Both the position numbers and the translations under genes were made by a program. DNA of 20,000 bases. Origin: an uncultured virus (IMG/VR IMGVR_UViG_3300025679_000006) (lineage: Duplodnaviria > Heunggongvirae > Uroviricota > Caudoviricetes). The notes beneath the pieces were generated by a model that was not told the DNA's origin, did no database searches, and saw only the letters and a list, made by a program, of their open reading frames with translations. Where the stretch lies: the IMG/VR virus record IMGVR_UViG_3300025679_000006, one strand, 5' to 3'. Within the stretch, counting starts at the first letter, position 1, and the number at the start of each line of letters is the position of its first letter. This document shows positions 3,880 to 19,892 of this stretch, one piece after another.

Positions 3880-4332
3880 CTAGCCGATAGACCTCGGGGC
3901 ATTGGAGAAGTGTAAATTCCAAATTGCGATTGCCTGTTCCGTATCACCTTCGGTATTCTCTTTAGCGTTGATGTTCCTTTTGAAAGCACCGCCAGAGAGA
4001 GTGTAGATATCCTGCTTGATCCCACCATTACCATCGCCGATGTTCTTAATGAACTCGCCGGTTAGCAAAGCAAAGGCCGCAGGGTTTTGCTGGAACAAGG
4101 ACAGAAGGTTAGTCAAGAACATATCGTCTGCCCCGCCCCTCAATAACCGCAAGGTAAACGTGCACTGCCGTCCTTGGTTATCGAAACCATAGATCGAATT
4201 GCCGTCCTTACCCGTTTTGATCTTGACCAAGTCGTTTGGGAAATCCAACACAGCGGTATCCCCATCGCCAAAATCGACAAGGGTGCGACCGTTGATCTGT
4301 ATTGTATCGTCGCCTGTTAAACTGATAATCAT
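3880..4332 (-). CDS. Tail tube protein (DUF3277-like)
   Basis: 150 aa, directly downstream of the sheath. Motif DFGDGD...KTGKDG...TFTLRLL. AGGAGG SD. Confidence 0.75.
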   Translation of the reverse strand: MIISLTGDDTIQINGRTLVDFGDGDTAVLDFPNDLVKIKTGKDGNSIYGFDNQGRQCTFTLRLLRGGADDMFLTNLLSLFQQNPAAFALLTGEFIKNIGDGNGGIKQDIYTLSGGAFKRNINAKENTEGDTEQAIAIWNLHFSNAPRSIG

Positions 4333-4356
4333 GCTATCCTCCTTTTAAAATCCACG

Positions 4357-5475
4357 TTACGGATTGATGTTGATGACAATGCTCGAGCTATGTATCGCCC
4401 CAGCTTCCTTGATAGCGATCTGAACCAGCGGTGATTTCCTTGCTGTCCTGTTGACCGGAAGCTGTTGATTAACCGGAGCACTGTAAATATAATATCCTTT
4501 TTGAAGGACGTTATTAATCAAATCCGCTTGAACCCCGAAATACTCCGGAGAATTCCAAGACCCCGGTGCGATGTACCCGTTGTTAACAGCCTGATCGCAC
4601 ACCTGACGATACACAGACTTGAGGTAGGACATGCCCGGCTCTGTCTGCGGAATCTTAGTGCCGACCTGCAGTAGAGCGTTAAATCCGTTGACCTTGATCT
4701 GGCTGACGAACCAAATGAGATTATAAATCTCATCGAAGAACTTGTTCGCCCCGTTTGAAACGTAAGCCGAGATCCCCGCGAAGTCGGTATAAAGATCCAC
4801 GCCCGCTGTCTCGCACTGATTGTAAATGGTCTGAGTGATCCCTTCATCGGGAGTGATCCCGATCAACTGTTTCAAGTTCATGGTGATCGCCGTATTGTTC
4901 CCCGTGAAATCAACCGACATGCCACGCCCTGCGGCCGCTGCCGCTTGCAAACGAGCATCCAGAGAAGCCGTACTGCGATAAATACAGCGTGTAGAATTGT
5001 CCGTGGCGTTCTTAATATCGGTGAATGGACCGGCGATATCAGAACCTGTTGAAGAAGGCAAGAAGAGAATCTTGTCTTGGAACCCTGCCACGATGGTCGC
5101 CAGAGCAAGCATAAGCCCGGACGTGGGATAACTGTTGCTGATGATCCCACAGAAGAACACAAGCGGAGCGCAACGTGTAATTGCGTTTGCCAAAGTCTCG
5201 GCATTAAGCATAGGGAAGATAATAAGGTTCCCACCCCCGGCCAAAATGTTCGGCTGTTGACTAAACACAGCGATGGCCTGTAAGTAAGCCTCAGATCCTG
5301 ATCCCCAATCTTCGGCAACGGCGGCCGGAGAAACGTAAGACTGGAATGCGCCATATGCGCCTCCCGCAATAGGAACCTCGGACGTGAACAAAGCCACGTT
5401 GTTGATATTATAATTTCCTAACCCCACCGGGGTTTGAATGACTGACACATCAATGACATTCACTATATCGAGCAT
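4357..5475 (-). CDS. Contractile tail sheath protein (DUF3383-like)
   Basis: Motifs TMNLKQLIGITPD, FFDEIYNLIWF, KIPQTEPGM, AVNNGYIAPGSW, RTARKSPLVQIAIKEAGAIHS. AGGAGG SD. Confidence 0.88.
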   Translation of the reverse strand: MLDIVNVIDVSVIQTPVGLGNYNINNVALFTSEVPIAGGAYGAFQSYVSPAAVAEDWGSGSEAYLQAIAVFSQQPNILAGGGNLIIFPMLNAETLANAITRCAPLVFFCGIISNSYPTSGLMLALATIVAGFQDKILFLPSSTGSDIAGPFTDIKNATDNSTRCIYRSTASLDARLQAAAAAGRGMSVDFTGNNTAITMNLKQLIGITPDEGITQTIYNQCETAGVDLYTDFAGISAYVSNGANKFFDEIYNLIWFVSQIKVNGFNALLQVGTKIPQTEPGMSYLKSVYRQVCDQAVNNGYIAPGSWNSPEYFGVQADLINNVLQKGYYIYSAPVNQQLPVNRTARKSPLVQIAIKEAGAIHSSSIVININP

Positions 5476-5486
5476 TTAACTCCTCC

Positions 5487-6089
5487 TTACGTTTGAGGAT
5501 ACACAGTTGGATCCTTACTGGGTATCACGAAGACTACATCTAAATCTGGTTGACCATCATTGACCCTTACCTCAACACTATGCGAGTCCAAGAATTGAGC
5601 GACCTTAACTTTATTGTACCAGGACATGACCTTGACCTCGAGATCGAACCTGTACAAACGAGCAGTCCCTTCTACCTCATTAACAGGGATGATGTTGACG
5701 TTCCTAAATATTTTAAAACTGTTTGCTTCCTGTATCTGCTGAGAGTAGATGGAATGAAGAGCCATGACCGCTTCCTCTTTCCTCTGCAAAGCATCCAAGT
5801 TCCTCGAATAAAGCCCGATGGATATATCCTCGAGCATGTTCGAGTCCTGCTCCTCATTAGCACCATCGATGGTGGGTACCATTAAATTTCTGGAAGAGAT
5901 GACCTTTGGAGATCCTTTGTACTCGATATAAATAAACAGACCGGCCTTAGGCGGGATGCGGAATTTCTGATTATAGATGACAACACGATCACTATCGAGT
6001 CCAAGCTCTTCAATAAGAATAAGCCGTATCAAATCCAAAGTCAGATACGCCGTGGTAGAGTTAGGATTCTCTGATGTGTTAAGTCTCAT
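5487..6089 (-). CDS. Tail terminator / neck protein
   Basis: 200 aa, immediately upstream of the sheath. Motif RLYRFDLEVKV. Synteny. Confidence 0.6.
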   Translation of the reverse strand: MRLNTSENPNSTTAYLTLDLIRLILIEELGLDSDRVVIYNQKFRIPPKAGLFIYIEYKGSPKVISSRNLMVPTIDGANEEQDSNMLEDISIGLYSRNLDALQRKEEAVMALHSIYSQQIQEANSFKIFRNVNIIPVNEVEGTARLYRFDLEVKVMSWYNKVKVAQFLDSHSVEVRVNDGQPDLDVVFVIPSKDPTVYPQT

Positions 6090-6465
6090 CTTCGTAGTCC
6101 TCTAGCAAGTCGTACTCCCGATAGCCATACTCGCTCTGATGCATCTCGGCCATGATCCGGTATTTAACATCCCTGATCAATACGATATCATCGAGATTGA
6201 GCCGAGGCTCGGGTAGTACATGGAGCTTACTCCACTTCCAACTGCGCTCGCCCTCCGGCTTAATAGCCAGCTGACGTTGAGTAAACGCCTGTCGAACACC
6301 TTGCGTGAGGATACAGATTTTCTTCTCTTTGAGATACCCTGAGTCATTACGCTTCTTGACAATCTCTATTTTAATGCTTTGAAAGAACGTCATGACGCCA
6401 GACGATAAGTCCGGCAAATCAGTCGTATCATTAACGTTTCTTTTGTTAGCACGATCTATCTTCAT
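6079..6465 (-). CDS. Head-tail joining / head closure protein
   Basis: 128 aa with QGVRQ...LAIKPEGERSW...DDIVLIRDVKYRI motif. Neck-gene position. Confidence 0.65.
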   Translation of the reverse strand: MKIDRANKRNVNDTTDLPDLSSGVMTFFQSIKIEIVKKRNDSGYLKEKKICILTQGVRQAFTQRQLAIKPEGERSWKWSKLHVLPEPRLNLDDIVLIRDVKYRIMAEMHQSEYGYREYDLLEDYEDET

Positions 6466-7049
6466 CTTGATACCACCCTGCTAGAAATTGACTGTCGTAA
6501 CTGACCCGTATCTATAAGATGAGAAGGTGCGCCACCCGCCCTGCCGTAGCCACCTATCTCCGTGGATCCCTTTTTCAAGGAAGGCCACGTTCCGTATCCT
6601 GACGTAGGAAAAGCCTGATGCACTATGCTCTCTCCAATCGCCGCAAGCTTTTCGTAAGCTATGGTGATATTGGAAGTCTCAAGCCCTTTTAAAATCAACT
6701 GTCCGACCCTAGCCATCATCCCCGGCATTTTGGTCGTAAGCGGAACCTCAAGGAATGACCGGCGCGGTATCCTCCGCTTCGGACTTCCCTTCTCATGGAT
6801 AAGACCCAGATCCGCATTAGATAAATCAGAGTCCTTCTGAACCACTGGGACTTTTTGCTTCCCTGATTTACCGCCGACAGCTTCCTTCTTAATGACTAAA
6901 CGTCCACCTGACTTGACCCCGAGAATGCCAATCTGAGCAACGAAATTCTTCCCAAGTTCCTTCTCGATCTCCTCCAACTTGGTAGTGTCGAGCCGGACCA
7001 TGATCCGGTTCTCTGAACTGTCGCCGATCTTCTTGACCTTAACGCTCAT
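6462..7049 (-). CDS. Virion morphogenesis / neck protein
   Basis: Motifs NADLGLIHEKGS..IPRRSFL and LIDTGQLRQSI, typical of this neck protein family. Confidence 0.75.
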   Translation of the reverse strand: MSVKVKKIGDSSENRIMVRLDTTKLEEIEKELGKNFVAQIGILGVKSGGRLVIKKEAVGGKSGKQKVPVVQKDSDLSNADLGLIHEKGSPKRRIPRRSFLEVPLTTKMPGMMARVGQLILKGLETSNITIAYEKLAAIGESIVHQAFPTSGYGTWPSLKKGSTEIGGYGRAGGAPSHLIDTGQLRQSISSRVVSR

Positions 7050-7492
7050 TGTCGTGGGCCTCCAGCTATGACGAAAACATTGCCGTATAGAAACGGTATA
7101 GTAAGCTCAAGGAACCTCATCCCATATCCGTTGACCGTCAACGAAGACAAGAATGGATCCTTGGTATACGCCTCTGGAAGCTGGTAGCTAACAGACACCG
7201 ATCCCACCGAAGTGGAACTGATCGGAAACTTCGACTGGCTCGACAACCCCTTTGTAGAAAGCTGGATGTTGCGAACCAAGCAAAAGGCGACGAGATACAT
7301 GAAAGCGTTCGTCGTCTGTGCGTCCGTTCCATAAAGCCCGGAGTTAAAATTAATCTGGGCCTCTCCAAGAGCGCGGTTAAAATCCCCGGCTGTAACGTAG
7401 TCGAGGTTGTTACCATCCGTCCCTTGGGCGAAGAAGAAATCCCTCGCGAAAAAGCTCTGGAAATCAGTATATACCGGCGGTGTCCAGGACAT
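7046..7492 (-). CDS. Head-tail adaptor (DUF4054-like)
   Basis: Motif ISSTSVGSVSVSY...LTVNGYGMRFLEL. Position just downstream of the capsid genes. Confidence 0.75.
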   Translation of the reverse strand: MSWTPPVYTDFQSFFARDFFFAQGTDGNNLDYVTAGDFNRALGEAQINFNSGLYGTDAQTTNAFMYLVAFCLVRNIQLSTKGLSSQSKFPISSTSVGSVSVSYQLPEAYTKDPFLSSLTVNGYGMRFLELTIPFLYGNVFVIAGGPRQ

Positions 7493-7936: not shown

Positions 7937-8992
7937 TCAGAAGTCGAAGTATAAGACCTCTAATCCGCGATACACGCCGACCCCTGTTGCTTGGCCGTAA
8001 CCTGCATCTTGGAACTGGAAGTTGTTAAGAGTATTGGGCTGTGTAACGGTATAATCCACGGGAATATCCATGCGGAGAGTCTCGGGATCATAACGATACA
8101 TGCAATACCTATTCAACCCTGTCCCTGCGTTCACAACGCTACTGTTGTAGGTTGGCATGCTGTAAATACTGGGAAGGATCTTGATACCGCCGGGAACGAT
8201 CTCGGCAAAGGCCTTCTTCAAATATTCCAGCTTGCTATTGAACGGGTATGTGGGTGACACTGGTGTAGCTAACCCTAACCAATCATTCTGAGGAATGATA
8301 AAGTGGGTTGGCATTGCAGTGTACGCACAATTGGACTGGTAAGACGCCACAACCAATGACACGAAATTCGCGAACTGTGTCGGAGTCATGGAACTGATTG
8401 ACGCGGTGATAGTGGTCAAGTCTGAGTTGACGTTGCTACCACTCTGGCTCAGGAGACCGGGGAAGTTGGTCTGATCGGACAACACGCCCAAAAAGGCCAT
8501 CTTCTGGATACCTAAGTCCCAGTTTTTCTTACGGCTTCTGTGCTTGGATTCGATGATATCCCAGTTGTTCGACTGAAGAGCCTGTTCAATCTCAAACACG
8601 GAATACCCTACTGCCTTCGCCCAATTCAACACAGCGACGGTCTTGCTAGCGATCGCGGAGTCAGCAGACTCTAAGCGGTCGTTACCAGAACCTTGCTGGA
8701 TGATGCCTGACTCGAAATCACGGGCGGTGGACACCGTTAAGTTGGTCAGGATGTTTTGGGAAAACGCACCGTCTCCGACGGAAATAGGGATATAATCCGC
8801 TGGAGCCACCTCGTAGAACTTTTGCTCGGTGATCTGCTTCTTGATAAACGTGAGTGTATCAATAGCGATCTGGTACCCGAGGGTTGTCTGGTCAATGTCC
8901 CCAGTGGCATTGCGCACTGTAAGACCTGACAATGAACGGGCATTGTGCCGGGCTGCACTTTGCTTGACAAAATCCTGAACTGATTGTTTCAT
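7937..8992 (-). CDS. Major capsid protein (HK97 fold, DUF2184-like)
   Basis: 351 aa with motifs LTFIKKQITEQKF, WAKAVGYSVFEIEQA, IQKMAFLG...FPGLL and QATGVGVYR. GGAGG SD. Synteny. Confidence 0.88.
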   Translation of the reverse strand: MKQSVQDFVKQSAARHNARSLSGLTVRNATGDIDQTTLGYQIAIDTLTFIKKQITEQKFYEVAPADYIPISVGDGAFSQNILTNLTVSTARDFESGIIQQGSGNDRLESADSAIASKTVAVLNWAKAVGYSVFEIEQALQSNNWDIIESKHRSRKKNWDLGIQKMAFLGVLSDQTNFPGLLSQSGSNVNSDLTTITASISSMTPTQFANFVSLVVASYQSNCAYTAMPTHFIIPQNDWLGLATPVSPTYPFNSKLEYLKKAFAEIVPGGIKILPSIYSMPTYNSSVVNAGTGLNRYCMYRYDPETLRMDIPVDYTVTQPNTLNNFQFQDAGYGQATGVGVYRGLEVLYFDF

Positions 8993-9023: not shown

Positions 9024-9545
9024 TTATGTAGCTGAACTTGAAGAACTGGAACTAGAACTACGGCAGCTGGAAGAGCTTGAGCTGCTGGAATACTGTGCCA
9101 CTGTACGGATCAACACGCGAAGCAACTGAGCGGTCGCGGTAGTGGTGTCAAGAGCAACGCCCGCAGCAGTATTAACACCCGCCCAAGCAATGACCTTGTC
9201 GCCGGTCGCAACAATCTCGACCATCTGTCCACGAGTAATCGCAGCACCAGATTCCATCTCCATAACTGATCCGGCCAAAGCAACTTCAACTTTGCCACCG
9301 GCAGTATGGGAAGGTTTCTTAGGCGTTAACACAACGAACCCGAAGATCTGGTCAGTCGCTACTGCCTTCTCGACGAGGATTGTGTTAGCACTGCCTGTGA
9401 TCAACCGAACAGCTGTACCGGCATAGAAAGTACCGCTGGACGCTGTGGTAATCTGGCAAGAGATTGTCGAAGGACTAGGGACTGCTGAAAGCCCTCCCTT
9501 AATTGGTCCCTGTGTGATCTGGTTTAGATTTTGAAATTCAGCCAT
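9024..9545 (-). CDS. Capsid decoration/cement protein paralog 2 with 21-aa poly-Ser tail
   Basis: Directly upstream of the capsid gene. Aligns end to end with 9606..10226 (e.g. IFGF, VEVAL.GSVMEMES). Confidence 0.7.
   Translation of the reverse strand: MAEFQNLNQITQGPIKGGLSAVPSPSTISCQITTASSGTFYAGTAVRLITGSANTILVEKAVATDQIFGFVVLTPKKPSHTAGGKVEVALAGSVMEMESGAAITRGQMVEIVATGDKVIAWAGVNTAAGVALDTTTATAQLLRVLIRTVAQYSSSSSSSSCRSSSSSSSSSAT
9027..9089 (-). repeat. Ser-rich coding tract S8-CR-S9-AT
   Basis: Direct translation. Mixed TCN/AGY codons. Confidence 0.9.
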
Positions 9546-9605: not shown

Positions 9606-10226
9606 TTAGATAGCGGATGAACTTGAACTTGAACTCGAACTTCTACAACTACTGCTTGAGCTACAACTAGAGCTAGACAAGCTCGAACTTGAACTACAGC
9701 TTGAACTGCTAGATCTACAAGAGCTCGAACTACAACTCGAACTGCTACTTCTGCAAGAACTCGAGCTTGAACTTCCTTCTTCCAACGCTGTTTCAATCAA
9801 CACCCGGACAAGAACGTTAGCAGCAGGTGCCATGTCGAGAGCGTGCCCGATGTAGGAGTTGACTCCTCTGAAGGGTGTGACCAACGTCCCCGCAGCCACA
9901 AGCTCTAACACTGCCCCACGTTGGAACGCAATTGCTGACTCCATCTCCATGACGGAACCAGTAAGTGCCACTTCGACTCGGTCTGCCTTGGTCCAGATAT
10001 TCTTCTTGGGCCCATAAACAATGAACCCAAAAATATTATCACCGACTCCCGCCAAATCAACGACATATTCATTGGCATTGCCGGAGACCAACTTCACGGG
10101 GCTCGCAGCCACGAACGCATTCACCGACGTGCTGAGAATAACGCACGACAACGTGCTCGGGTTAGGAACGGCGCTAAGCTGTCCTTTGACGGGGGACTGA
10201 TTTATTGCGTTTAGATTCTGACCCAT
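9606..10226 (-). CDS. Capsid decoration/cement protein paralog 1 with 55-aa Ser/Cys tail
   Basis: Lies between scaffold and capsid. Paralog of 9024..9545. Confidence 0.7.
   Translation of the reverse strand: MGQNLNAINQSPVKGQLSAVPNPSTLSCVILSTSVNAFVAASPVKLVSGNANEYVVDLAGVGDNIFGFIVYGPKKNIWTKADRVEVALTGSVMEMESAIAFQRGAVLELVAAGTLVTPFRGVNSYIGHALDMAPAANVLVRVLIETALEEGSSSSSSCRSSSSSCSSSSCRSSSSSCSSSSSLSSSSCSSSSSCRSSSSSSSSSAI
9609..9773 (-). repeat. Ser/Cys-rich coding tract (43 Ser, 6 Cys in 55 aa)
   Basis: SSSSSSCRSSSSSCSSSSCRSSSSSCSSSSSLSSSSCSSSSSCRSSSSSSSSSAI, encoded by mixed codons. Confidence 0.9.
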
Positions 10227-10238
10227 CCGTCCCTCCTC

Positions 10239-10880
10239 TTATTGATCAGTCCCGTAACGAGTCCTACCGCGATCTACCCGGTTCGTCATGGTGTCGATGG
10301 TAAGGGTGCTAGCGACGGAGCCGTTCTCGCGGGCGGTATTCAAGCGCACGAAATGCTGAACGTCCTTCTTGCCGTTACCTTCGGTGATTTTCTTTTCGTT
10401 TTCTTTCTTCTCTTCTTCTTTCTTCTTGGCCTCTTCGTCCTCGGCGTTTTTCTTCGCCATTTTCTCGTCCTCGTCCTTCTTTTTCAGGGCCTCGTCTTCT
10501 GCGTTCTTTTTGTTCTTCGCCTCTTCTTCTTTTTTCTTTGCTTCTTCCTCGGCGTTTTTAACGACAGTTTCCTTCGCACCCTCTTCTTCGCCCTTCTTGA
10601 TCTCCTTCTGCGCATCATCTGCGTTTTTCTTTTTCGCCTTATACTTCGCGATTAAGTCGCTGACGTTGTGCACGGAACCGTCGATCTCCAATTCGTTTTC
10701 AACGGATTGGACGGCTTCGTAGTCGTTCTCTTTAGAATGCTTGGCAAGCTCAGACAACGACACCATCTCGTTTTCGATCTGAACAAACACATTGTCAGCA
10801 TTCCACTTTTGCTTAGTTGGATCTTTGGGATCCACCTCTGCGCCAGCTTTATCGTTGGACTTTCGGAACAATTGAATCAT
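10239..10880 (-). CDS. Capsid scaffolding protein
   Basis: Highly charged K/E coiled-coil located between the protease and decoration/capsid genes. AGGAGG SD. Confidence 0.75.
   Translation of the reverse strand: MIQLFRKSNDKAGAEVDPKDPTKQKWNADNVFVQIENEMVSLSELAKHSKENDYEAVQSVENELEIDGSVHNVSDLIAKYKAKKKNADDAQKEIKKGEEEGAKETVVKNAEEEAKKKEEEAKNKKNAEDEALKKKDEDEKMAKKNAEDEEAKKKEEEKKENEKKITEGNGKKDVQHFVRLNTARENGSVASTLTIDTMTNRVDRGRTRYGTDQ
10390..10640 (-). repeat. Degenerate coding repeat K-K-N-A-E/D-D/E-E-A-K-K-K in the scaffold
   Basis: KKKNADDAQK, VVKNAEEEAKKK, NKKNAEDEALKKK, AKKNAEDEEAKKK. Confidence 0.8.
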
Positions 10881-10900
10881 TTCTCTTCCTCCTTTTTAGT

Positions 10901-11659
10901 TTACGTACTCTTTGCCACCTTCACCGTTACAAAATTGTCCCTCCTCTCCTTCGCCTTTTCGTAGGCAGAGCATTCTTGCGTTTGCCCGAGAAGCCTTTCA
11001 TCAGCATAACGTTGAGAAATCTCCCCACCCGCGCCCGCAACAGAGCACTTGCCCTGGACGAGATATTCGCAAGTGTCACAGACTCTTTGAACTTTGTTAA
11101 CACGAACAGTTACCACATTCTTACGACCCGCGCCTTCTTTAATAGAAGCCTTCTTTGAGTTCACCAACATCTGGGTTGGTTGAATTACGCACTTCTCATA
11201 TCTGGGGGAAGTAACTAAAGCGAGGTGGTTGAACACCCCGTCGATAATCTCCTCATTATATTTAATTGCGTGCCACTCTCCGCCGGGCCCGGTGACTACT
11301 TGGTCGTACGCGCAAGAGACAGAGTAGCCGTTGGCTACCTTCTCCTTGGCTTTGTCGTCGGTCAGAATAAAAGAACAATAGGCCCACCCGGAGTAGTCGT
11401 CGAACCAAACTCTTGTAACATACCCCACAGCATGATCCTGGAAGTCCTTGGGGGACACGTCCACGTGGTTGATAACAACGGGCTTACCCACGAAGGTCGG
11501 GAGCATCTTGTTTATCGTGGCCTTGGTGAGCATTGCGATGCCGGCGTCTACGTCCTCATAGGACACGAGCCCACTCTCTAAGAAGTTGACCACGTATTCG
11601 CTGGGCCAATCCTTAGCGTTCGATTTAGCTTGCTGTATTCTTTTAGTTGTGATAATCAT
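10901..11659 (-). CDS. Prohead maturation protease (DUF2213-like) with C-terminal Cys-rich extension
   Basis: Motifs FVGKPVVINH, AVGYV, GYSVSCAY, FNHLALVTSPRY. About 85 extra C-terminal residues with CDTC..C..C. Confidence 0.8.
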   Translation of the reverse strand: MIITTKRIQQAKSNAKDWPSEYVVNFLESGLVSYEDVDAGIAMLTKATINKMLPTFVGKPVVINHVDVSPKDFQDHAVGYVTRVWFDDYSGWAYCSFILTDDKAKEKVANGYSVSCAYDQVVTGPGGEWHAIKYNEEIIDGVFNHLALVTSPRYEKCVIQPTQMLVNSKKASIKEGAGRKNVVTVRVNKVQRVCDTCEYLVQGKCSVAGAGGEISQRYADERLLGQTQECSAYEKAKERRDNFVTVKVAKST

Positions 11660-12057
11660 TTATTTAATGCCCCCCCCCCGCGACTTAACCAATAGATAAC
11701 TAAATTAAAAATCGAAATCAATATCCCGACGACGGCAATTCCTATCGAGATCGTCACAGCACTTTGATCTGCTTTTCCCTCCACCTTCGCATTAACAAGT
11801 CGTAGATCCTCAACCTTATTTGCTATTTCTTGATGCTGTACCGCATAGACACTCTTGTCCACAAATGTTGTAGCCTGTGCAGTCAGCTGCTCACGCACTT
11901 GGTTTGAGGCGTGCATACGTGCGTCAAGAACTTCCTTAGACAATGTTCCAGCAATTTCGCTAGCTCTCTCCTTAGCTTCGGCAAGCTCCCTGTTTGCCTT
12001 CACCAGAACCTCTAGCGCGACCAGCCGTTTATCAATTATATTGATAGGGTTGTTCAT
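11656..12057 (-). CDS. Coiled-coil protein with C-terminal transmembrane helix (133 aa)
   Basis: Start re-called to ATG 12057 (MNNPINIIDKR), with GGAGGT SD and ATGA overlap with the MuF stop. Hydrophobic segment VTISIGIAVVGILISIFNLVIYWL. Confidence 0.65.
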   Translation of the reverse strand: MNNPINIIDKRLVALEVLVKANRELAEAKERASEIAGTLSKEVLDARMHASNQVREQLTAQATTFVDKSVYAVQHQEIANKVEDLRLVNAKVEGKADQSAVTISIGIAVVGILISIFNLVIYWLSRGGGALNK

Positions 12058-13451
12058 ACTAGCACCTCCAGCTTTAGCTTCTCGACAAACCAAGTAGGCA
12101 TAATGTCTATTGCTTCTTCCAGTTCGGCGTCCGGGACTGTGACGGTGCAAGAGATACTCTCCACGCCTTCGTCCAAAGAGGCCATAGCGCGATGACGACC
12201 GTCTTGCCAAAACAAAATGCGCTTGCCTGTCCACTTATACTCTAAGGTCGGGCCCGCGACAACAGTCCCCATTCGGATTTGCCTACGAATGGCTTCCACT
12301 TTCTCTGGGAGCATTGTAGCGAAGAGATGCTGCATCGTCGGATAACCGAAGCCTTGTTGTACCAGCTCGAGATACTCGGCGGGCTTGAGGTCCACTTTAA
12401 TAACCTTAGCGTTGTGGAGTGCGATATGCTCGTCTGACTCCAGCAGGTTAATACCACTAATCTCGGTATCGTACAAAGGACGCTTGGTCGAGGAGCCCGG
12501 CTTCATAATTACTGGAAGAGCAACACATCTGCATCCGAAGTCTTCGCCGGGGTTGTTCCTTGCCCCAGTCGCCTTGTCAGTAATAGGCGGAGAGTCCCAA
12601 GAGAAGATACGCCCATTCAACTCTTTGTGGTCTTCGCGCACGCGTAAGTCCGAAGAGGTAGACCATTGGTATTGGTTAAGGCCCGCTTCTTCGTACCGCA
12701 CTTGACGATACTTTGCAACGAATAGGGATGTCTCTTGCCGGGCCACAAACTTAGCGCGATTGGCGGTGACCCCATACTCCGACATCAAAATCTTCTTAAG
12801 GCCCTTGGCCCGAATACCTTGTCCGACTGCGTCTTCTACTCTTTGACGCATCCTGTAGATAGCGTCGGCCCCGAGGTCTTCAATCTCATCATAAACGTTC
12901 GCAGTGTAACTGGCAATCATCTTCTCTTCCATAGCGCCATGCATTTCGACTGGGATCTCTAAGTCCTTCGGAGTTAACTTCTCAAATTGTTTGTGCAAGT
13001 CGGCGAGTGTGCTCTTCGCTACGTCGACTGTGTTAGGGATAATAATGTTGTTGTCTGTTAATTCTTGGAGTTTTTTACGCATCTTGGAAATGGCTTCCGA
13101 CTCCACCACGCTCCCTCTTGAAATGGCAGCCCGGATATCGGGAGGGAAACTAGAGAGACTAATTTTAAACGCCTTCTTCGGGATGTTGAAGGTAGCGCCC
13201 AGAAGTTTAAGAGCTTTGGATATCCCGGCGTTAAACTTCCCATAGACGAAGCCCTCGCTGAAATGAATTGTCCCGCTAACGAAAGCTTGCACCAGTGGAG
13301 AAACAGGCGCGTTCTCTCGGCTCTCTGCTGGATCTAACAGATTCAGCAGAGGTTTGTACAACAATTGAAACAGCTCATACGCCAAAGTCTGCTCCAGATA
13401 CTTGGAGTAGGCGTCCTTGTCTCGAATCGGTTGTATGAATTTTGCGTACAT
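12054..13451 (-). CDS. MuF / SPP1 gp7-like minor head protein fused to a C-terminal ParB/Srx-like domain
   Basis: MuF motifs RAKFVARQETS, YQWSTSSDLRVREDHKELNG, PGEDFGCRC. The C-terminal ~118 aa contain P-x-L...QDGRHRAMA. Confidence 0.85.
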   Translation of the reverse strand: MYAKFIQPIRDKDAYSKYLEQTLAYELFQLLYKPLLNLLDPAESRENAPVSPLVQAFVSGTIHFSEGFVYGKFNAGISKALKLLGATFNIPKKAFKISLSSFPPDIRAAISRGSVVESEAISKMRKKLQELTDNNIIIPNTVDVAKSTLADLHKQFEKLTPKDLEIPVEMHGAMEEKMIASYTANVYDEIEDLGADAIYRMRQRVEDAVGQGIRAKGLKKILMSEYGVTANRAKFVARQETSLFVAKYRQVRYEEAGLNQYQWSTSSDLRVREDHKELNGRIFSWDSPPITDKATGARNNPGEDFGCRCVALPVIMKPGSSTKRPLYDTEISGINLLESDEHIALHNAKVIKVDLKPAEYLELVQQGFGYPTMQHLFATMLPEKVEAIRRQIRMGTVVAGPTLEYKWTGKRILFWQDGRHRAMASLDEGVESISCTVTVPDAELEEAIDIMPTWFVEKLKLEVLV

Positions 13452-13760
13452 CTATTCCTTTGAGCTATAGACTGGGATTCCAGCCATAGTTAGATCAGTA
13501 TGACATTTTTCGCACTCATCATCGTAATTCGTAATTGGAGTAACGTGCCCACAATTATCACACTTAATCCCCACAACTTTTTTAGCATTCTCCACTTGCC
13601 CAGTCCCCTTGCAATTCTTACACTGGAACAACATCAACTTACTTCCGCCTTCGCAGACCGGGCAGTTGCAGGTGTTGCTCTTCTTGGAGCCGTAGCCTTT
13701 GTCGCCACGTTCCAACATTCCTTGTCCGCCTTTGAACTTATAAGATTCTGTTTCGTACAT
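13452..13760 (-). CDS. Double zinc-finger protein (102 aa)
   Basis: CPVCEGG, CKNCKGTG, CDNCG, CEKC motifs. AAGGAG SD. Confidence 0.7.
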   Translation of the reverse strand: MYETESYKFKGGQGMLERGDKGYGSKKSNTCNCPVCEGGSKLMLFQCKNCKGTGQVENAKKVVGIKCDNCGHVTPITNYDDECEKCHTDLTMAGIPVYSSKE

Positions 13761-13770
13761 ATTGTCTCCT

Positions 13771-14049
13771 TTAAAAACTCCAGGACGCCGACGTCCCGGT
13801 TGTTGAGCCGTAATGGTTGAACCCGCCTACGATGATTGTGAAACCCCTCGGAGTCGGCCTTGCCAAAGCCTTGTCGTGCTCGGCTTTGTGTTTCATCAAA
13901 TACTCGTAGGACAAATTAATCTCTTTCATCCTCTCCGGATCTCCACCCCGGTCTGGGTGGTTCTTGAGGGCCAAGGCACGATACTGCTTCTTGATCTCTG
14001 CGATCGAAGGTGTGCCTGACATGTCGAGGATGTAGTAGCGGTTGTCCAT
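13771..14049 (-). CDS. Stand-alone J-domain (DnaJ-family) protein
   Basis: YYILD...EIKKQYRALALKNHPDRGGDPERMKEINLSYEYL, containing the canonical HPD motif. Confidence 0.9.
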   Translation of the reverse strand: MDNRYYILDMSGTPSIAEIKKQYRALALKNHPDRGGDPERMKEINLSYEYLMKHKAEHDKALARPTPRGFTIIVGGFNHYGSTTGTSASWSF

Positions 14050-14472
14050 TTATCTCTCGCCGACCTCAAAAGTGTTATCCCCATTACAAGCAGAGCATGT
14101 AGATCCTTTATGCCCCATAAATCTCTTCCCACAATCGTCACACTCTACTTCTACTTTACTATCATTTTTCACGCTCGCGTAGCGTTGTGTCCCGCGATCG
14201 GTGCGCATCTCGAGAGTGTCAAGACGTTGCATAGCTGTTAAATCGTTGTCCTTCTTACGAATCAGTTCTTCTTCTTGCAATTGGTGCTCCTCGAGACTGG
14301 CTTCGTCTTCGCTGTTCTTTTTCTTTTGTAATTCTTTCACCTTAGCGTTGGCCTCCGCTCTTGTCTGGAACATGTCTATGAGTTTCTGACCATCATAGAG
14401 GGTGAAGTTGAGCGCACCCTCTTTGCCCCACCTATCCTCTTTGATCTTGTAGTCATGGTATTCATCAGACAT
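14050..14472 (-). CDS. Modular protein with scaffold-like motif and C-terminal zinc ribbon (140 aa)
   Basis: Contains LDTLEMRTDRGTQRYA and CDDCG...CSAC. Abuts the neighbouring genes. Confidence 0.7.
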   Translation of the reverse strand: MSDEYHDYKIKEDRWGKEGALNFTLYDGQKLIDMFQTRAEANAKVKELQKKKNSEDEASLEEHQLQEEELIRKKDNDLTAMQRLDTLEMRTDRGTQRYASVKNDSKVEVECDDCGKRFMGHKGSTCSACNGDNTFEVGER

Positions 14473-14804
14473 TAACTACCTACTTTTTCTTCGGAGCCTT
14501 CCCATTTGAATTCTCCGTTGATCCCCACTGGAAAATAATCTCCGCAAGTGCAACAAAAAGTAGACCCATAATAAAAAGGATTACGCGCATAGGTCTCCGC
14601 TATTGCTTGGGGCATGTTCGTAGATCCACCACACTTCTCGTGGACGTACGTCTTCCGCACCGGGCGAATAAACCCCTTGGCCCGTTCTTCTTCTGGGAGC
14701 ACCCAATGGTCGACGTGCTGTCCGTCGGGACGCTTCTCCTTGTTCGGGACTGACTCCGTCTCCGGCTCGACTGGCTTGTTCCCACTGTTAGTTGCTTTTT
14801 CCAT
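14472..14804 (-). CDS. Hypothetical zinc-binding phage protein (110 aa)
   Basis: HEKCG...FCCTC motif. AAGGAG SD. Confidence 0.7.
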   Translation of the reverse strand: MEKATNSGNKPVEPETESVPNKEKRPDGQHVDHWVLPEEERAKGFIRPVRKTYVHEKCGGSTNMPQAIAETYARNPFYYGSTFCCTCGDYFPVGINGEFKWEGSEEKVGS

Positions 14805-15075: not shown

Positions 15076-15552
15076 TCAAAACGTTAGCTTGAACTGTGCC
15101 CCGATAAATGGTGCTTCTTTCCATTTGTTCGACGGTGTGTCAAAACGCGCACCATACCCGCCACCAACGTAAAGATACTGGGTGTACTTTAAGATCGGTA
15201 CGTTTTGAACTGGAAGGAATTGACCGATGTTATAGTCAATGCTCAGGCCCGCTCCGTCCAGGTTCAACATGGCGATGTCTAGCGAGATGTTCTTCCACGT
15301 AATTAAGGTCGCGCCGGTGTAGGTCACAAACTCTTTACGCTTGAAGTCCCAAACAGTACCCTCGCGTACGCCGAGGTAGTTCACAATGTTGGTAACGTCG
15401 GTGAAGATCGTATTGGGGTCAATAGTAACCTGATCCCCGGTCGTGGGGTTGACTACCTTGTACGACGCTGTGCGTTGCGGGCCGAAGATGTCGGCGTTCG
15501 CAACGGTGCACAATCCAAACAGTAACACGATGCTGAGTAATACGTTTTTCAT
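15076..15552 (-). CDS. Exported protein, probable small outer-membrane beta-barrel
   Basis: Sec signal MKNVLLSIVLLFGLCTVANA, alternating beta-strands (YLYVGGGYG), and C-terminal FIGAQFKLTF ending in Phe. Confidence 0.6.
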   Translation of the reverse strand: MKNVLLSIVLLFGLCTVANADIFGPQRTASYKVVNPTTGDQVTIDPNTIFTDVTNIVNYLGVREGTVWDFKRKEFVTYTGATLITWKNISLDIAMLNLDGAGLSIDYNIGQFLPVQNVPILKYTQYLYVGGGYGARFDTPSNKWKEAPFIGAQFKLTF

Positions 15553-15565
15553 TTTGTCTCCTTTT

Positions 15566-16303
15566 TTAAGCTCTGAGTGTCCACATGTCAGAGACTAGGT
15601 TCTTGAAATAGTCGTAGGGCATCCAGAAGTTCCCCGAAAGGCCCCAAGCCGTACCCCAAGAGTTACGTACGAAGACAGCATTCTTGCTGTCGTCATATCC
15701 AATTACCAATACACAATGCCCACCAACAACGCGCTCAAAAGAACCCGGCATTTTAGCAATGCCAGTTGACGCAACGTCCGGAGCTTCAAAGCCACTGTAC
15801 ACTGTGAACCCGATGATGACTGGGAAGCCTTGTGCGAGCGAATTTTTAACGGACATCAAATCGGTACAACGAAAATAGTTAGTAATCTTGTTCGACCCTG
15901 CTGCTGCATACGCAGCGTCGGGTGGCTGTACCGCGAACTGAGTGATATCGTATGGCCACAAGTCCTCGTTACAAGCTCCCTTCCTTGCTAGCCCGGCAAC
16001 TACGTCCCGAATCTGTGCTCCGTCGTCTTCGGCAGTGGTGCCCTCAATCTCTCTACCGTCGTAGTAGATCATTAGCCGAGAAGAAGGCGAGGAGCCTTCG
16101 TGGATAAACAACATTGCTGCCCCGCAGCCGTGCCCAGTGCATGAGCCTAATTCGCCTTGATCCCAACACGCGGGCAACTTGTCGGTAAGCAGGACGCTGG
16201 GAGGCATAAAGACCATCTTGTCGTGTTGCGACTCGTGGTACAGCATATCACGAGAGTCCTTCTTGTCCGGTTTACATCCGTACCGCTTCGTGTGTTTTAT
16301 CAT
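15566..16303 (-). CDS. Papain-family (C1A) cysteine peptidase
   Basis: Catalytic motifs QGELGSCTGH (Gln, Cys), GGHCVLVIGY (His), VRNSWG (Asn). No signal peptide. Confidence 0.92.
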   Translation of the reverse strand: MIKHTKRYGCKPDKKDSRDMLYHESQHDKMVFMPPSVLLTDKLPACWDQGELGSCTGHGCGAAMLFIHEGSSPSSRLMIYYDGREIEGTTAEDDGAQIRDVVAGLARKGACNEDLWPYDITQFAVQPPDAAYAAAGSNKITNYFRCTDLMSVKNSLAQGFPVIIGFTVYSGFEAPDVASTGIAKMPGSFERVVGGHCVLVIGYDDSKNAVFVRNSWGTAWGLSGNFWMPYDYFKNLVSDMWTLRA

Positions 16304-16812: not shown

Positions 16813-18224
16813 TACTTAGCTCCTACTAGTTGACGTGCTTTCCTATTAGTCTTTGGTGTTGATTCCTTCGCGGTCACAATATCCTTTGGAGTCGTTGTAG
16901 TCATGGCCGGTGTAGGTGGTTCTGGTTCACGACTACCTTGCGAGACCTCGGTATCCATTGTAACAACGTTCTCCTTGCGTAAAATTTCGGCATACTCTTT
17001 GCCGGTCAACATACCCTGGGAATACAAAGCTGAGGCCCGGTTGAACTTCTTATCCAGGATATTCTCCTCTGCCTCTGCACTCAAGATACGCAGTGGCTTG
17101 AAATCGACTTCAAAGTGCTCTGGTATAAAACCAAACAACTGCTTACAACGAAGCTTGATGATGGTGTGCAACGGTTCACGCAAGCGGGCCCGGACTTCAC
17201 TTTCGATGAGGCAGTTATATACCTCAAGATCGTCTTCACCCGAGTTAAACCCTGCGCTGGACATACCAAACAAACGAGTCATTGGCATACGAACCGCGCC
17301 CGACACCCCAATACGATTCTGATTTTGCATTTCGGCGAGCCCACCGAAGGTGATCTGCTTCTGGTCATAGATATCGTTCTTGTCCATGACGATCGCGTTG
17401 GAATAATTCTTTAGCTTGTTAGCCAACTCCAAGCGCTGTTGAATTGACGCTTGGCCTTGGGTTGTTGCGAGCTTCGTATTCAAGTTCTCGAGTTGCCATA
17501 TGTCCTGTTTAGCCTCGTCGAGCAACTCGTAGATTACGTCTTGGTTCTTTGTGTAAGCGTTGAAGTCGCGTATCACGCGCTCAAGCTCAGACATGCCCCA
17601 TCCTTGTAACCTACGGCGGATGAAAGAAGGAGCGTCCTTTCCATTAATCTTGAGAACTCTGCTGCGGTGGATAGGTTGGCCGTAGTAATTGTAGGGACAG
17701 GGGACTTTCTCTTCGAGGATGTAGTTCAGGGTGAGTTCCCAACGATCAGCGTCAATAAAAGATAAGGGGGATTGTTCAGAGACTAAATTCATGTCTAGTT
17801 CCGTTGTCGGATCTTGGTCTGTGTTTATGATTAGTCCTGCTCCCCCATATAGCTTAGCCCACTTCATAGCGTTCTTGATTGCTTCGTAATCTTTCAGCTC
17901 AACGAGCACGTCCTGGAGCAACGCGATATCGTCCTCGGACAACTCGTCTGTTTCGATGTCAACGCCACCCCGGAGTGCGTCTTCAACGGGCTGGTCAATA
18001 AAGGTTTGAATAATACCAAAGGTCATGTAAGCGTAGGAGAGAAGAATGCGGTTGAGCGTAACGGGGTTGTATTGGTTCGCGTTGCCGAGCTGAAAAGGAT
18101 AGGACGACGCACTAGTTGTACCGTATCCCATACCCGGATCGAAGATACCGTCAAGCATCCCATTCCGCCGGGTCTCACCTTTATTCTTAACCTTCACAAG
18201 TTGCTTAATCTTAGGTTTTCTCAT
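16812..18224 (-). CDS. Portal protein (DUF1073 / HI1409-like)
   Basis: Follows terL. Motifs IDQPVEDALRGG, WAKLYGGA, IHRSRVL, GWGMSEL, MPMTRLFGMSSAGFNSGEDDLEVY, FEVDFKPL. Confidence 0.88.
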   Translation of the reverse strand: MRKPKIKQLVKVKNKGETRRNGMLDGIFDPGMGYGTTSASSYPFQLGNANQYNPVTLNRILLSYAYMTFGIIQTFIDQPVEDALRGGVDIETDELSEDDIALLQDVLVELKDYEAIKNAMKWAKLYGGAGLIINTDQDPTTELDMNLVSEQSPLSFIDADRWELTLNYILEEKVPCPYNYYGQPIHRSRVLKINGKDAPSFIRRRLQGWGMSELERVIRDFNAYTKNQDVIYELLDEAKQDIWQLENLNTKLATTQGQASIQQRLELANKLKNYSNAIVMDKNDIYDQKQITFGGLAEMQNQNRIGVSGAVRMPMTRLFGMSSAGFNSGEDDLEVYNCLIESEVRARLREPLHTIIKLRCKQLFGFIPEHFEVDFKPLRILSAEAEENILDKKFNRASALYSQGMLTGKEYAEILRKENVVTMDTEVSQGSREPEPPTPAMTTTTPKDIVTAKESTPKTNRKARQLVGAK

Positions 18225-19504
18225 TGATTCCTCCCAGACAACATGTCGCCCAACGGCCCGGTGCTGATGTCTTGATAATTCAATTCGAAGATGCTGGTCT
18301 GTGCTTTCATGTATGGCTCCATTGCATACCGCGCAGCGTCGCAGGCGTGATTAGACTTATCAATCGGAATCGGAAGAACCTGTTCAGTTGTACGATCAAC
18401 TTTCCACCTGTAGTTGGAAAAGTCACCAACACTTCCTTTGCAATCAGGATGAATGATAATAGCTTCAAAGTTCTTAAGAAATTCAATACCGTCTTCAACG
18501 CTCCCTGGACTTTTTTCCGCGCCCACGCACTGGAAGCCATGGTTAGCCATGTAGGAGATTGTGTCGGGCCTTGCAGAGTCGCCCCGGATTGTCCACTCTC
18601 TACTTTTTGGCACTGTGTCCCAACACTTCGGGTGGTCGTCGATCTCAATGCCATAGCCATAAAACTCACTATCAATATACAGGATACGTTCGCGGATAAA
18701 CATACGAATAAGACAGGTAGGGTTGGAACCAAAACCAAAGTCAGCGCCATAGTAGAATTGTGTTCCTTCGTCTGCGGGAATAAACGTTTCAACGCGAAGC
18801 TTGTTCTTAAATATAACTGCTTGCCCATATTTCTTTGGCCGACCGCCCCACACGTGGTCGTATTTCTCGGGGTCGTTTTTACGGCACCAGTCCATCTCTT
18901 TATAAAGAACTTTAGGGAACCAAGGGTTGTCCCACCAATTGACGAAGCAACGGAGTAACTCCGGCATAACAACCGGCTTGCCGTCCTTCTCAATAAACAT
19001 AACGTATGTGGCAGACTTCTCATCTTCAGGATTGAACGATACCAGTATTTCGGAATCGTCTCCGCGTATTGTTGGTGTTAGAACTGTCCAGCTGTCTTCG
19101 GCGACTTTTTCTGCTTCTTCGACCCAGCAGATTTGCACGCCTTCGGTTGACTTGACTTCACTGATATTTTGTCTAAGGCCCTTGAATATGATCTCAGAGC
19201 CATAAATGCTTGAAATTGAATCACGCTGAATAACGAAGAAGCGCTGAAGCTTATGAAAATATATCCGGTCGCAGAGAAGACGGTGCACCGAGTCTTTGAT
19301 AGACCCCTGAATCTCTCGAGTGCACAAAACGCGATAACATCCGAACGCACACTTCTGTATAATGTAATCCGCGATGGCCCACGACTTGGTACTACCCCTT
19401 CCACCGTAAAGTACCTTGTATCTTGCGTATTCAGTTGCATAGAGTACGTCTCCAACCGTCCCAATAACATTAACATTAAGAGGCTGGACTTGTTGTTCCA
19501 GCAT
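18221..19504 (-). CDS. terL: Terminase large subunit (PBSX-like family)
   Basis: Walker A YGGRGSTKS, CTREIQGSIKDSV, Walker B CWVEEAE, SFNP, nuclease motifs GADFG and NHACDAARY. Confidence 0.95.
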   Translation of the reverse strand: MLEQQVQPLNVNVIGTVGDVLYATEYARYKVLYGGRGSTKSWAIADYIIQKCAFGCYRVLCTREIQGSIKDSVHRLLCDRIYFHKLQRFFVIQRDSISSIYGSEIIFKGLRQNISEVKSTEGVQICWVEEAEKVAEDSWTVLTPTIRGDDSEILVSFNPEDEKSATYVMFIEKDGKPVVMPELLRCFVNWWDNPWFPKVLYKEMDWCRKNDPEKYDHVWGGRPKKYGQAVIFKNKLRVETFIPADEGTQFYYGADFGFGSNPTCLIRMFIRERILYIDSEFYGYGIEIDDHPKCWDTVPKSREWTIRGDSARPDTISYMANHGFQCVGAEKSPGSVEDGIEFLKNFEAIIIHPDCKGSVGDFSNYRWKVDRTTEQVLPIPIDKSNHACDAARYAMEPYMKAQTSIFELNYQDISTGPLGDMLSGRNQ

Positions 19505-19892
19505 CTTTCGCTACCTCATGCTTGATAATGTTTATTACTGGAGGCACAGGTAACGGGCCCCCACCAACTGAACCAACTTCCTGAACGGAAGGAACCGGCC
19601 CGATGATACGATTAAGCACTCGTTCAGCGTACCCCATTTCTTTATTCTTGATATCTCTTAAAAGTGTTTGTGCAATGATGACGCGAAGTGCGCCGGTCTT
19701 TGGATCATCAATAATTAAATTGAGTTCATCAGTGGAATAGTTCATCAAGTCCGTATACATTTCTGCAACGACCTTGGTTGTGTATTCTTTGAAGGTCTTC
19801 ATGATAGGAAGAGTTGCGCCACCACCTCTGGGGTTAGTGACTACACCCTTCTTGAAACTGGTGCGGTTTGGTTTTCTTTTTTTGGTTACCAT
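19476..19892 (-). CDS. terS: Probable terminase small subunit
   Basis: Directly upstream of and overlapping terL. N-terminal FKKGVVTNPRG motif and helical body ending LNRIIG. Confidence 0.7.
   Translation of the reverse strand: MVTKKRKPNRTSFKKGVVTNPRGGGATLPIMKTFKEYTTKVVAEMYTDLMNYSTDELNLIIDDPKTGALRVIIAQTLLRDIKNKEMGYAERVLNRIIGPVPSVQEVGSVGGGPLPVPPVINIIKHEVAKDAGTTSPAS

Follow-up and report, generated by a model that had tools for sequence, protein, structure and literature searches.

The DNA analyzed here, a stretch of 20,000 nucleotides from an uncultured phage (IMG/VR record IMGVR_UViG_3300025679_000006; hereafter the window), encodes a scaffold protein whose C-terminal peptide recurs in two otherwise dissimilar accessory proteins, the 140-residue g140 and the 102-residue zinc-finger protein Zn102. 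The peptide is real, conserved, terminal and modular, and it is confined to head-module genes. On balance, it probably acts as a scaffold-derived capsid-targeting tag that would load g140 and Zn102 into the procapsid. Window genes were identified with Pfam and PHROGs (33 proteins, 6611 residues in total); all of them lie on the minus strand, as do all window coordinates given below.

The scaffold end recurs in two accessory proteins

The scaffold (213 residues, K/E-rich; 10239-10880) sits between the prohead protease gene and the cement and capsid genes. Its final 20 residues are encoded at 10242-10301, and residues 194-211 (TIDTMTNRVDRGRTRYGT; 10248..10301) serve as the reference copy of the tag. 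In g140 (14050..14472), an N-terminal part and a long acidic helix precede a tag cassette and a C-terminal Cys4 zinc ribbon, with the tag copy at residues 83-100 (RLDTLEMRTDRGTQRYAS; 14173..14226). Zn102 (13452..13760) begins with its tag copy at residues 15-25 (MLERGDKGYGS; 13686..13718), followed by CxxC knuckles like those of the DnaJ central domain. The coordinates and strings of all three motifs, as reported by a first-pass annotation of this DNA, proved correct on checking. The g140 ATG overlaps the stop of the upstream gene, and a strong Shine-Dalgarno sequence (AAGGAG) lies 7 nucleotides ahead of the Zn102 ATG.

The likeness between the scaffold and g140 was assessed by ungapped BLOSUM62 comparison of the last 20 scaffold residues with all 33 window proteins, using 5000 shuffles. 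Residues 83-102 of g140 score 42 with eight identities, and the next-best window protein scores 16. Since the best score over all proteins averages 22.0 (standard deviation (s.d.) 3.9) in the shuffles, P(≥42) = 0.0004, which bears out the earlier claim of an ungapped copy with eight identities. BLASTP recovers the same 17-residue alignment. At the DNA level the two copies are identical at just 33 of 66 positions, so the likeness is held at the protein level and does not reflect a recent DNA duplication.

An independent log-odds profile (35.3 bits) was built from 54 unique C-terminal 19-mers of other phages' scaffolds, with the window's own family excluded. On all 19 columns, the scores are 31.7 bits for the window scaffold, 13.7 bits for g140 (P = 0.001 for a best non-scaffold score of at least 13.7), -0.2 bits for Zn102 and -7.3 bits or less for all other window proteins. 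The motif is therefore conserved in scaffold homologues, as the first-pass annotation had supposed. The last nine profile columns were taken as the core, with significance from 3000 shuffles. On this core the scaffold scores 19.9, Zn102 12.1 and g140 11.8 bits, the next window protein reaches 5.7 bits, and P = 0.001 for a second-best score of at least 11.8. The weaker copy that had been proposed for Zn102 is thus upheld by the core profile, jointly with g140, and not by the ungapped comparison. A six-frame scan of the window at ≥7 bits returns exactly three sites, namely those in the scaffold, g140 and Zn102.

In both accessory proteins the tag is followed by a K/V-x-N site and then a zinc-binding module, as had been noticed before: VKN and then Cys 111, 114, 126 and 129 in g140, KKSN and then nine cysteines between residues 31 and 86 in Zn102. 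The Pfam matches of these modules (zinc ribbon for g140, DnaJ-CXXCXGXG for Zn102, E 0.0096) are all below the curated cut-offs, including the weak DUF7129 match (E 0.0012) of the zinc-ribbon-like module of g140 (14086..14142). A protein atlas search with g140 returned nothing at ≥0.9, only zinc-ribbon leads. Zn102 has a homologue, P0006, that is 76% identical and retains ..E-R-G-x-x-x-Y-G-S-K-K-x-N. The gene directly before that of Zn102 encodes a 92-residue J-domain protein (13771-14049; PF00226, E 2.1e-10), so that the pair resembles a DnaJ split over two genes, with the tag on Zn102 only.

A single-sequence AlphaFold2 model of g140 has a mean predicted local distance difference test (pLDDT) score of 66. 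It places a helix at residues 37-88, which takes in the first half of the tag, and a small β-hairpin at residues 107-120 in the Cys4 module, while residues 89-101, which hold R-G-T-Q-R-Y-A-S, are of low confidence. According to PMC5644958, the scaffold of phage 80alpha and the SaPI1 protein CpmB share a C-terminal helix-and-hook (RIIK motif) that binds the N-arm of the capsid protein. As modeled, the g140 tag core in a low-confidence linker after a helix fits a short linear motif of this helix-and-hook kind.

The peptide ends the protease-scaffold protein of related phages

The window scaffold has no Pfam or PHROG match. When it was used alone as a query in viral contigs, only one contig was found, 100% identical, so relatives were gathered through the capsid protein instead. 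The sample comprises 10 viral loci, the best 80 of 251 viral relatives found with a profile, 20 loci from genome assemblies and the best 80 of 247 metagenome relatives (individual loci are given L numbers where needed). Where the upstream sequence is usable, capsid identity to the window is 39-78%.

In nearly all relatives, the gene preceding those of the cement and capsid proteins encodes one protein of 328-745 residues, with a DUF2213 domain in front and a charged scaffold region behind. The C-terminal consensus of this fusion is hydrophobic-[ED]-[TL]-S-x-D-x-hydrophobic-A-R-G-x-x-[RK]-Y-G-S followed by 0-8 residues. Bdellovibrio phage phi1422, with a capsid 43.5% identical, was the one cultured relative to turn up, and its gp48 has the same C-terminal end; a DNA search of the region against cultured phages gave no match. 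The scaffold end has diverged in a small clade (L010-L012 and L021). In three members of this clade the MuF proteins end in ..[IK]-[RK]-Y-G-K-K (L010 5591-6565, L011 5591-6565 and L012 5587-6561), and in L099-L101 a 526-539-residue protein before the scaffold gene (ORFs ~5572-7191; ORF, open reading frame) ends in ..K-[RA]-R-Y-[IV]-E. Both may represent further tag-like ends on minor head proteins.

The window departs from the one-polypeptide layout, as its protease and scaffold are two ORFs 20 nucleotides apart. Residues 1-174 of the protease are 60% identical to residues 1-171 of the L019 fusion, and the last 38 residues of the scaffold are 39% identical to the last 38 of the same fusion. 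The window phage therefore has a split fusion and, by sequence comparison, its scaffold corresponds, as a separate protein, to the C-terminal half of the relatives' protease-scaffold proteins. Both hallmarks of the fusion family are present in the window, the DUF2213 (PF09979) domain and the R-G-x-x-[RK]-Y-G-S scaffold end. The window protease also carries a novel 78-residue tail of its own (10904-11137) with four cysteines (C-x-x-C ... C ... C). This tail (..I-S-Q-R-Y-A-D..) was considered as a fourth tag copy and rejected, as it scores <2 bits on the core profile.

Accessory copies in related phages

Relatives were scanned with the core profile at a threshold of 10 bits, over 1488 unique non-scaffold ORF products (339,826 residues) of the first 100 loci. 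The scan gave 26 matches, compared with 4.4 (s.d. 1.9) in shuffles. Nine are scaffolds missed by the filter and 11 are small head-module proteins of 58-153 residues; of the others, five lie downstream of the capsid gene at chance level and one is internal, upstream and chance-like (L050). The peptide falls within the first 20 residues in 10 of the 11 small carriers and is C-terminal in the remaining one, L019 p58. Matches within the first 35 residues occur in 10 of 672 upstream products, none of 803 downstream products and none of 2449 opposite-strand ORFs (shuffle means 0.26, 0.32 and 0.78, respectively), in agreement with the expected enrichment of the motif in variable small genes of the head module.

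A later metagenome set, deduplicated against the earlier one, supplied 178 upstream and 224 downstream new products and three added accessory copies. Two of these are N-terminal, in a 117-residue protein of L105 and a 96-residue protein of L155, and one is C-terminal, in a 241-residue protein of L105. The same set also contained one downstream match from a family already at chance level and one borderline match (L137, 10.1 bits). L105 is a relative with 78% capsid identity, and its 117-residue protein (6538-6891) is homologous to Zn102 (43% over 56 residues, E 9e-12) and has kept the tag; its gene directly precedes the protease-scaffold gene.

The extreme N terminus is thus the usual position of accessory copies in relatives. 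It is the position found in Zn102 and in 11 proteins of relatives, and not in g140, whose copy lies at residues 83-100. Among accessory proteins, a C-terminal tag occurs only in L019/L106 p58 and L105 p241. As for the bodies to which the tag is attached, L071 p82 is a DUF5661 protein whose Pfam match begins well past the tag, and L072 p113, L093 p153 and L155 p110 belong to phrog_7595, with a match beginning at about residue 21. Other carriers are zinc-knuckle proteins and several orphans without a family. The carriers are mutually unrelated, which is the pattern of a portable signal, and the copies are recurrent but sporadic across lineages.

In L052, a 352-residue protein (4276-5334) starts with ..R-T-G-I-S-K-Y-G-S-A-Q-N-A.., which scores 6.3 bits and so falls below the threshold. 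A segment of phrog_30637, a large family of portal-to-protease fusions, gives a weak match, and the protein may represent larger cargo bearing this tag.

Internal copies and the phrog_2423 module

A HMMER pass with g140 over 1.84 billion protein representatives matched g140 itself, a truncated N-terminal homologue of 89 residues without the motif region, and a protein designated P0007, in which residues 35-67 are 50% identical to g140 residues 72-104 (E 5e-6). Ten relatives of P0007 were found. Members of this family are arranged as a phrog_2423 module (M-P-L-K..G-K-P-Q-K-Q-A-V-A-I-A-Y), a cassette (D-L-x-A-x-x-R..R-G-T-x-R-Y-A-S-x-K-N), an acidic stretch (D-E-A-S..E-E-H..R-K-K) and a C-terminal part that varies or is missing. 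The family provides a class of internal tag copies. The tag residues R, G and Y do not vary across 13 aligned cassette sequences, and 12 of the 13 match phrog_2423, g140 being the sole exception. The cassette and acidic stretch are present in g140 in swapped order, each bounded by K-x-N. Judged by this alignment, the internal cassette of g140 belongs to a wider family and is homologous to that of P0007.

The phrog_2423 module is also found in other arrangements. In L019/L106 p58, a 38-residue module is directly joined to the tag (L019 2927-3103), and in L006 (5201-5320) a 76% identical version of this module is fused to the N terminus of the protease-scaffold itself. The module thus appears to reach the same address by two routes, being fused to the scaffold in one case and bearing the scaffold end in the other. 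By itself the module is very common, with ~7700 stretches estimated in the viral collection, mostly in 41-70-residue proteins with a Lys-rich tail and sometimes at the front of larger head proteins (L184-L263). None of 59 unique module-bearing ORFs from 80 other viral loci reaches 10 bits for the tag, which makes the tag an addition peculiar to this lineage.

A candidate release site

An asparagine site recurs beside the tag. About 30 residues ahead of the scaffold end lies a conserved sequence, HFVRLNTA (10332..10355), that is a candidate protease release site (..L-N|T). The corresponding candidates in the accessory proteins are VKN directly after the tag in g140 (residues 101-103; 14164..14172) and KKSN after the tag in Zn102 (residues 26-29; 13674..13685). 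In homologues, the residues after the tag are K-K-N in the P0007 family, KKTN in P0006 and KEN in L105. All 11 N-terminal accessory copies have an asparagine within eight residues after Y-G-S, and 10 have it within five. Whichever end the tag occupies, the candidate site always separates it from the protein body.

In the fusions, [LIVMFA]-x-N-[ASTDG] is found 12-50 residues before the C terminus in 55 of 71 unique sequences (43 of them N-A), compared with 14.2 in shuffles (maximum 22), and scaffold domains contain 347 N-[AS] dipeptides compared with 138 (s.d. 10) by shuffling, both comparisons being inflated by the relatedness of the sequences. R, L or K is favored two residues before the asparagine (P3) at these scaffold sites. 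Given this strong over-representation, the asparagine after the tag may be a release site of the prohead protease. Capsid proteins also have a conserved N-[AS], ~25-75 residues from their start and just before the first conserved block (window 8900-8992), which could mark removal of an N-terminal propeptide.

Proposed mechanism and alternatives

In the mechanism that we favor, the C-terminal peptide of the scaffold would dock the protease-scaffold protein inside the assembling procapsid, with the PF09950 major capsid protein as the most likely partner and presumed receptor. g140 and Zn102 would carry working copies of the tag and be co-assembled into the procapsid as cargo, and the same loading would apply to a dozen unrelated small proteins in related phages. 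Between tag and body, [RKL]-x-N with A, S, D or T as the next residue would probably be cut by the DUF2213 prohead protease, freeing scaffold fragments for exit and releasing cargo from the shell wall. The cargo-loading proposal of the first-pass annotation is in this way strengthened in part, by the conservation of the motif in scaffold ends, its enrichment in head-module genes and the recurrence of the Asn site (11 of 11). The anti-defense role that it suggested for g140 and Zn102 is pure speculation.

A broader version of this mechanism is put forward tentatively. Throughout the lineage defined by the PF09950 capsid and DUF2213 protease-scaffold, a portable scaffold-end peptide of ~12-19 residues may load a changing repertoire of small proteins, which an Asn-specific cut by the prohead protease would release and which would be delivered with the DNA. 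That repertoire would include zinc-knuckle proteins, DUF5661, phrog_7595, phrog_2423 fusions, orphans and a DnaJ-type zinc-finger protein beside a J-domain protein.

Several points weigh against loading by this tag. Both the nine-column core and the N-terminal restriction were picked after the data had been seen. The Zn102 copy scores 14 in the ungapped test, below the null mean, and its -0.2 bits on the 19-column profile correspond to P = 0.052. The g140 copy is internal, and 13 of 14 accessory copies in relatives are terminal. Of the 62 distinct lineages that have ≥4 kb of upstream sequence and a recognized scaffold, just 9 carry an accessory copy (8 without L050), and the head region of phi1422 has none. 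The split window protease lacks the tag (best core score <2 bits), and the mechanism does not account for its entry into the shell. With regard to release, the inflation of the Asn-site and N-[AS] shuffle statistics applies here as well, and many scaffolds end in ..Y-G-S-N, so the asparagine could belong to the binding motif instead of a cut site. Finally, the partner of the tag could be the protease, portal or MuF instead of the capsid protein. Co-folding of the capsid protein with g140 residues 68-112 gave a score of 0.00 in a run without controls, and speaks neither for nor against binding.

If the tag served for docking to, or recognition by, the prohead protease (or portal or MuF), g140 and Zn102 would be substrates or regulators of the protease and not necessarily cargo. 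Such a role would suit the constant presence of a candidate N-[AS] site beside the tag, the union of tag and protease in one polypeptide in relatives, and the position of accessory carrier genes next to those of MuF and the protease. We nevertheless consider it unlikely, as it would be less economical for the protease to carry an exosite at the distant end of its own chain than for that end to bind the shell, and the scaffold-end precedent in PMC5644958 favors binding to the capsid protein. That same paper describes mimicry of this sort in CpmB, and g140 is laid out like a scaffold end, with a long charged helix and then the tag; the two accessory proteins might accordingly be assembly modulators that compete for the scaffold's site on the shell, either as auxiliary scaffolds or as CpmB-like size or timing factors. 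This seems improbable, since the carriers in relatives are diverse, small, mostly globular or zinc-binding and tagged at the N terminus, which fits cargo better than scaffolding, and they are encoded by the phage itself and not by a satellite.

The g140 copy might also be inert, a remnant of an old partial duplication of, or recombination with, the scaffold 3' end or a P0007-type gene. An acidic K-K-N-[AS]-E-D-E-A stretch is common to g140 and the scaffold, and the D-E-A-S..E-E-H..R-K-K stretch to g140 and the P0007 family, the latter in swapped order, which points to cassette shuffling. In addition, g140 has almost no homologues. We think such a remnant quite unlikely, because key residues are kept even though the DNA is only 33/66 identical, and because the invariance of R, G and Y over 13 cassettes of 28-70% identity indicates selection on the peptide. 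The motif is short, and the Zn102 match taken by itself is within chance in the ungapped test, so a chance resemblance of short, compositionally similar segments must also be weighed. The shuffle tests, the upstream enrichment, the six-frame scan and the recurrence in the later set make this scarcely credible as an overall explanation, very unlikely for g140 and unlikely for Zn102. Loading as cargo by a scaffold-derived tag remains the reading that we prefer.

The head module of the window

The head module opens with a small terminase candidate (19476-19892), the large terminase (18221-19504) and the portal (PF06381; 16812-18224). Between portal and MuF lies an accessory block of ~3.3 kb (16812-13452) with nine small or accessory genes, and among these nine the tag is present only in g140 and Zn102. 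The block also encodes a papain-like (papain-family) peptidase (15566-16303), a signal-peptide protein (15076-15552) and a 110-residue Cys protein (14472-14804), the third Cys-rich protein of the block. In L019/L106 the MuF gene comes directly after the portal gene, as opposed to the nine intervening genes in the window.

The MuF-like head morphogenesis protein (465 residues; 12054-13451) has a C-terminal extension of ~145 residues (12057-12494) that is not found in the 317-327-residue MuF proteins of relatives. The extension contains a D-G-R-H-R string, which we take to recall ParB-type domains. Pfam at E up to 1 gave no match for this extension, the protease tail, the 110-residue Cys protein or the L105 and L155 carriers.

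A coiled-coil/membrane protein is encoded between the MuF-like gene and the prohead protease (DUF2213; 10901-11659; PF09979 E 4.4e-11; PHROG head maturation protease). Two cement-protein paralogues (PF09956) lie between the scaffold and the major capsid protein (PF09950, E 3.8e-22; phrog_264; 7937-8992), and the tail genes come after the capsid gene. The cement paralogues end in long Ser runs with interspersed Cys and Arg, of the form ..S-S-S-S-S-C-R-S-S-S-S.. (9606-9790 and 9024-9100), whose DNA has a 36-nucleotide period. This Ser-rich tail is kept in the closest relatives (L003 8383-8922, L105 8410-8937 and L107 305-826) and not in more distant ones; a role in cross-linking or glycosylation would be a guess. 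A Protein Data Bank sequence search gave no match for the capsid profile or for the L019 protease-scaffold, and the idea of a capsid of the Bordetella phage BPP-1 type was therefore dropped.

Relation to known systems

As in 80alpha and CpmB, a second, otherwise dissimilar protein copies the scaffold end, and in both cases an amphipathic helix is followed by a short basic/hydrophobic hook. The window proteins do carry such a copy in an otherwise dissimilar context. Unlike the 80alpha system, there is no similarity to RIIK, the copies reside in the phage's own genes and not in those of a satellite, and they are mostly N-terminal or internal (Zn102 and g140, respectively) as opposed to C-terminal. 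The many unrelated small carriers also suggest cargo loading over size redirection.

The way in which tailed phages select proteins for the capsid interior is understood in few model phages, with T4 IPIII and P1 DarB as examples (PMC9024508). The copies in Zn102 and in 11 proteins of relatives resemble the targeting signals of the T4 internal proteins in being short N-terminal signals on unrelated proteins, here followed by a candidate protease site. In T4, the prohead protease removes the targeting signal by cutting after Glu. Here, by contrast, the signal recognizably duplicates the scaffold's C-terminal peptide, the putative cut would follow Asn, and the capsid and protease belong to the PF09950 and DUF2213 families.

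In encapsulin systems, a short conserved terminal peptide is found on diverse cargo proteins encoded beside the icosahedral shell gene. The likeness is that a short peptide on diverse carriers can be found by motif search around the shell gene. Unlike encapsulins, the present system belongs to a tailed phage that packages DNA and has terminase, portal and tail genes, the peptide is common to the scaffold-protease, and there is no sequence relation. The herpesvirus protease precursor and assembly protein share a C-terminal capsid-binding tail that is removed at the M-site, ~25 residues from the end. The conserved L-x-N-A site that 55 of 71 fusions carry at a distance of 12-50 residues from the C terminus recalls that arrangement as an analogy of layout, with cleavage being our inference. 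Herpesviruses are not known to have accessory cargo that bears this tail.

A literature search, with most subscription journals outside its reach, found no description of the motif or of DUF2213 scaffold ends, and papers that mention DUF2213 appear not to treat it. What appears to be new here is a signal that is a recognizable copy of the scaffold's own end and is shared across a large uncultured lineage. Its occurrence at the N terminus, at the C terminus or inside a protein also appears to be new, as does its pairing with a putative processing site specific for Asn. Since the address label can be read from sequence, cargo would become predictable in metagenomic phages by a motif scan beside the head genes. 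The tag is short, is found in three positions (C-terminal, N-terminal and internal) and comes with a candidate release site. It could also be put to use as a tag for packaging. One peptide would tie the scaffold ends to the targeting of the protease and the loading of cargo. If true, this would provide a natural phage counterpart of the encapsulin cargo-loading peptides, together with a new protease specificity.

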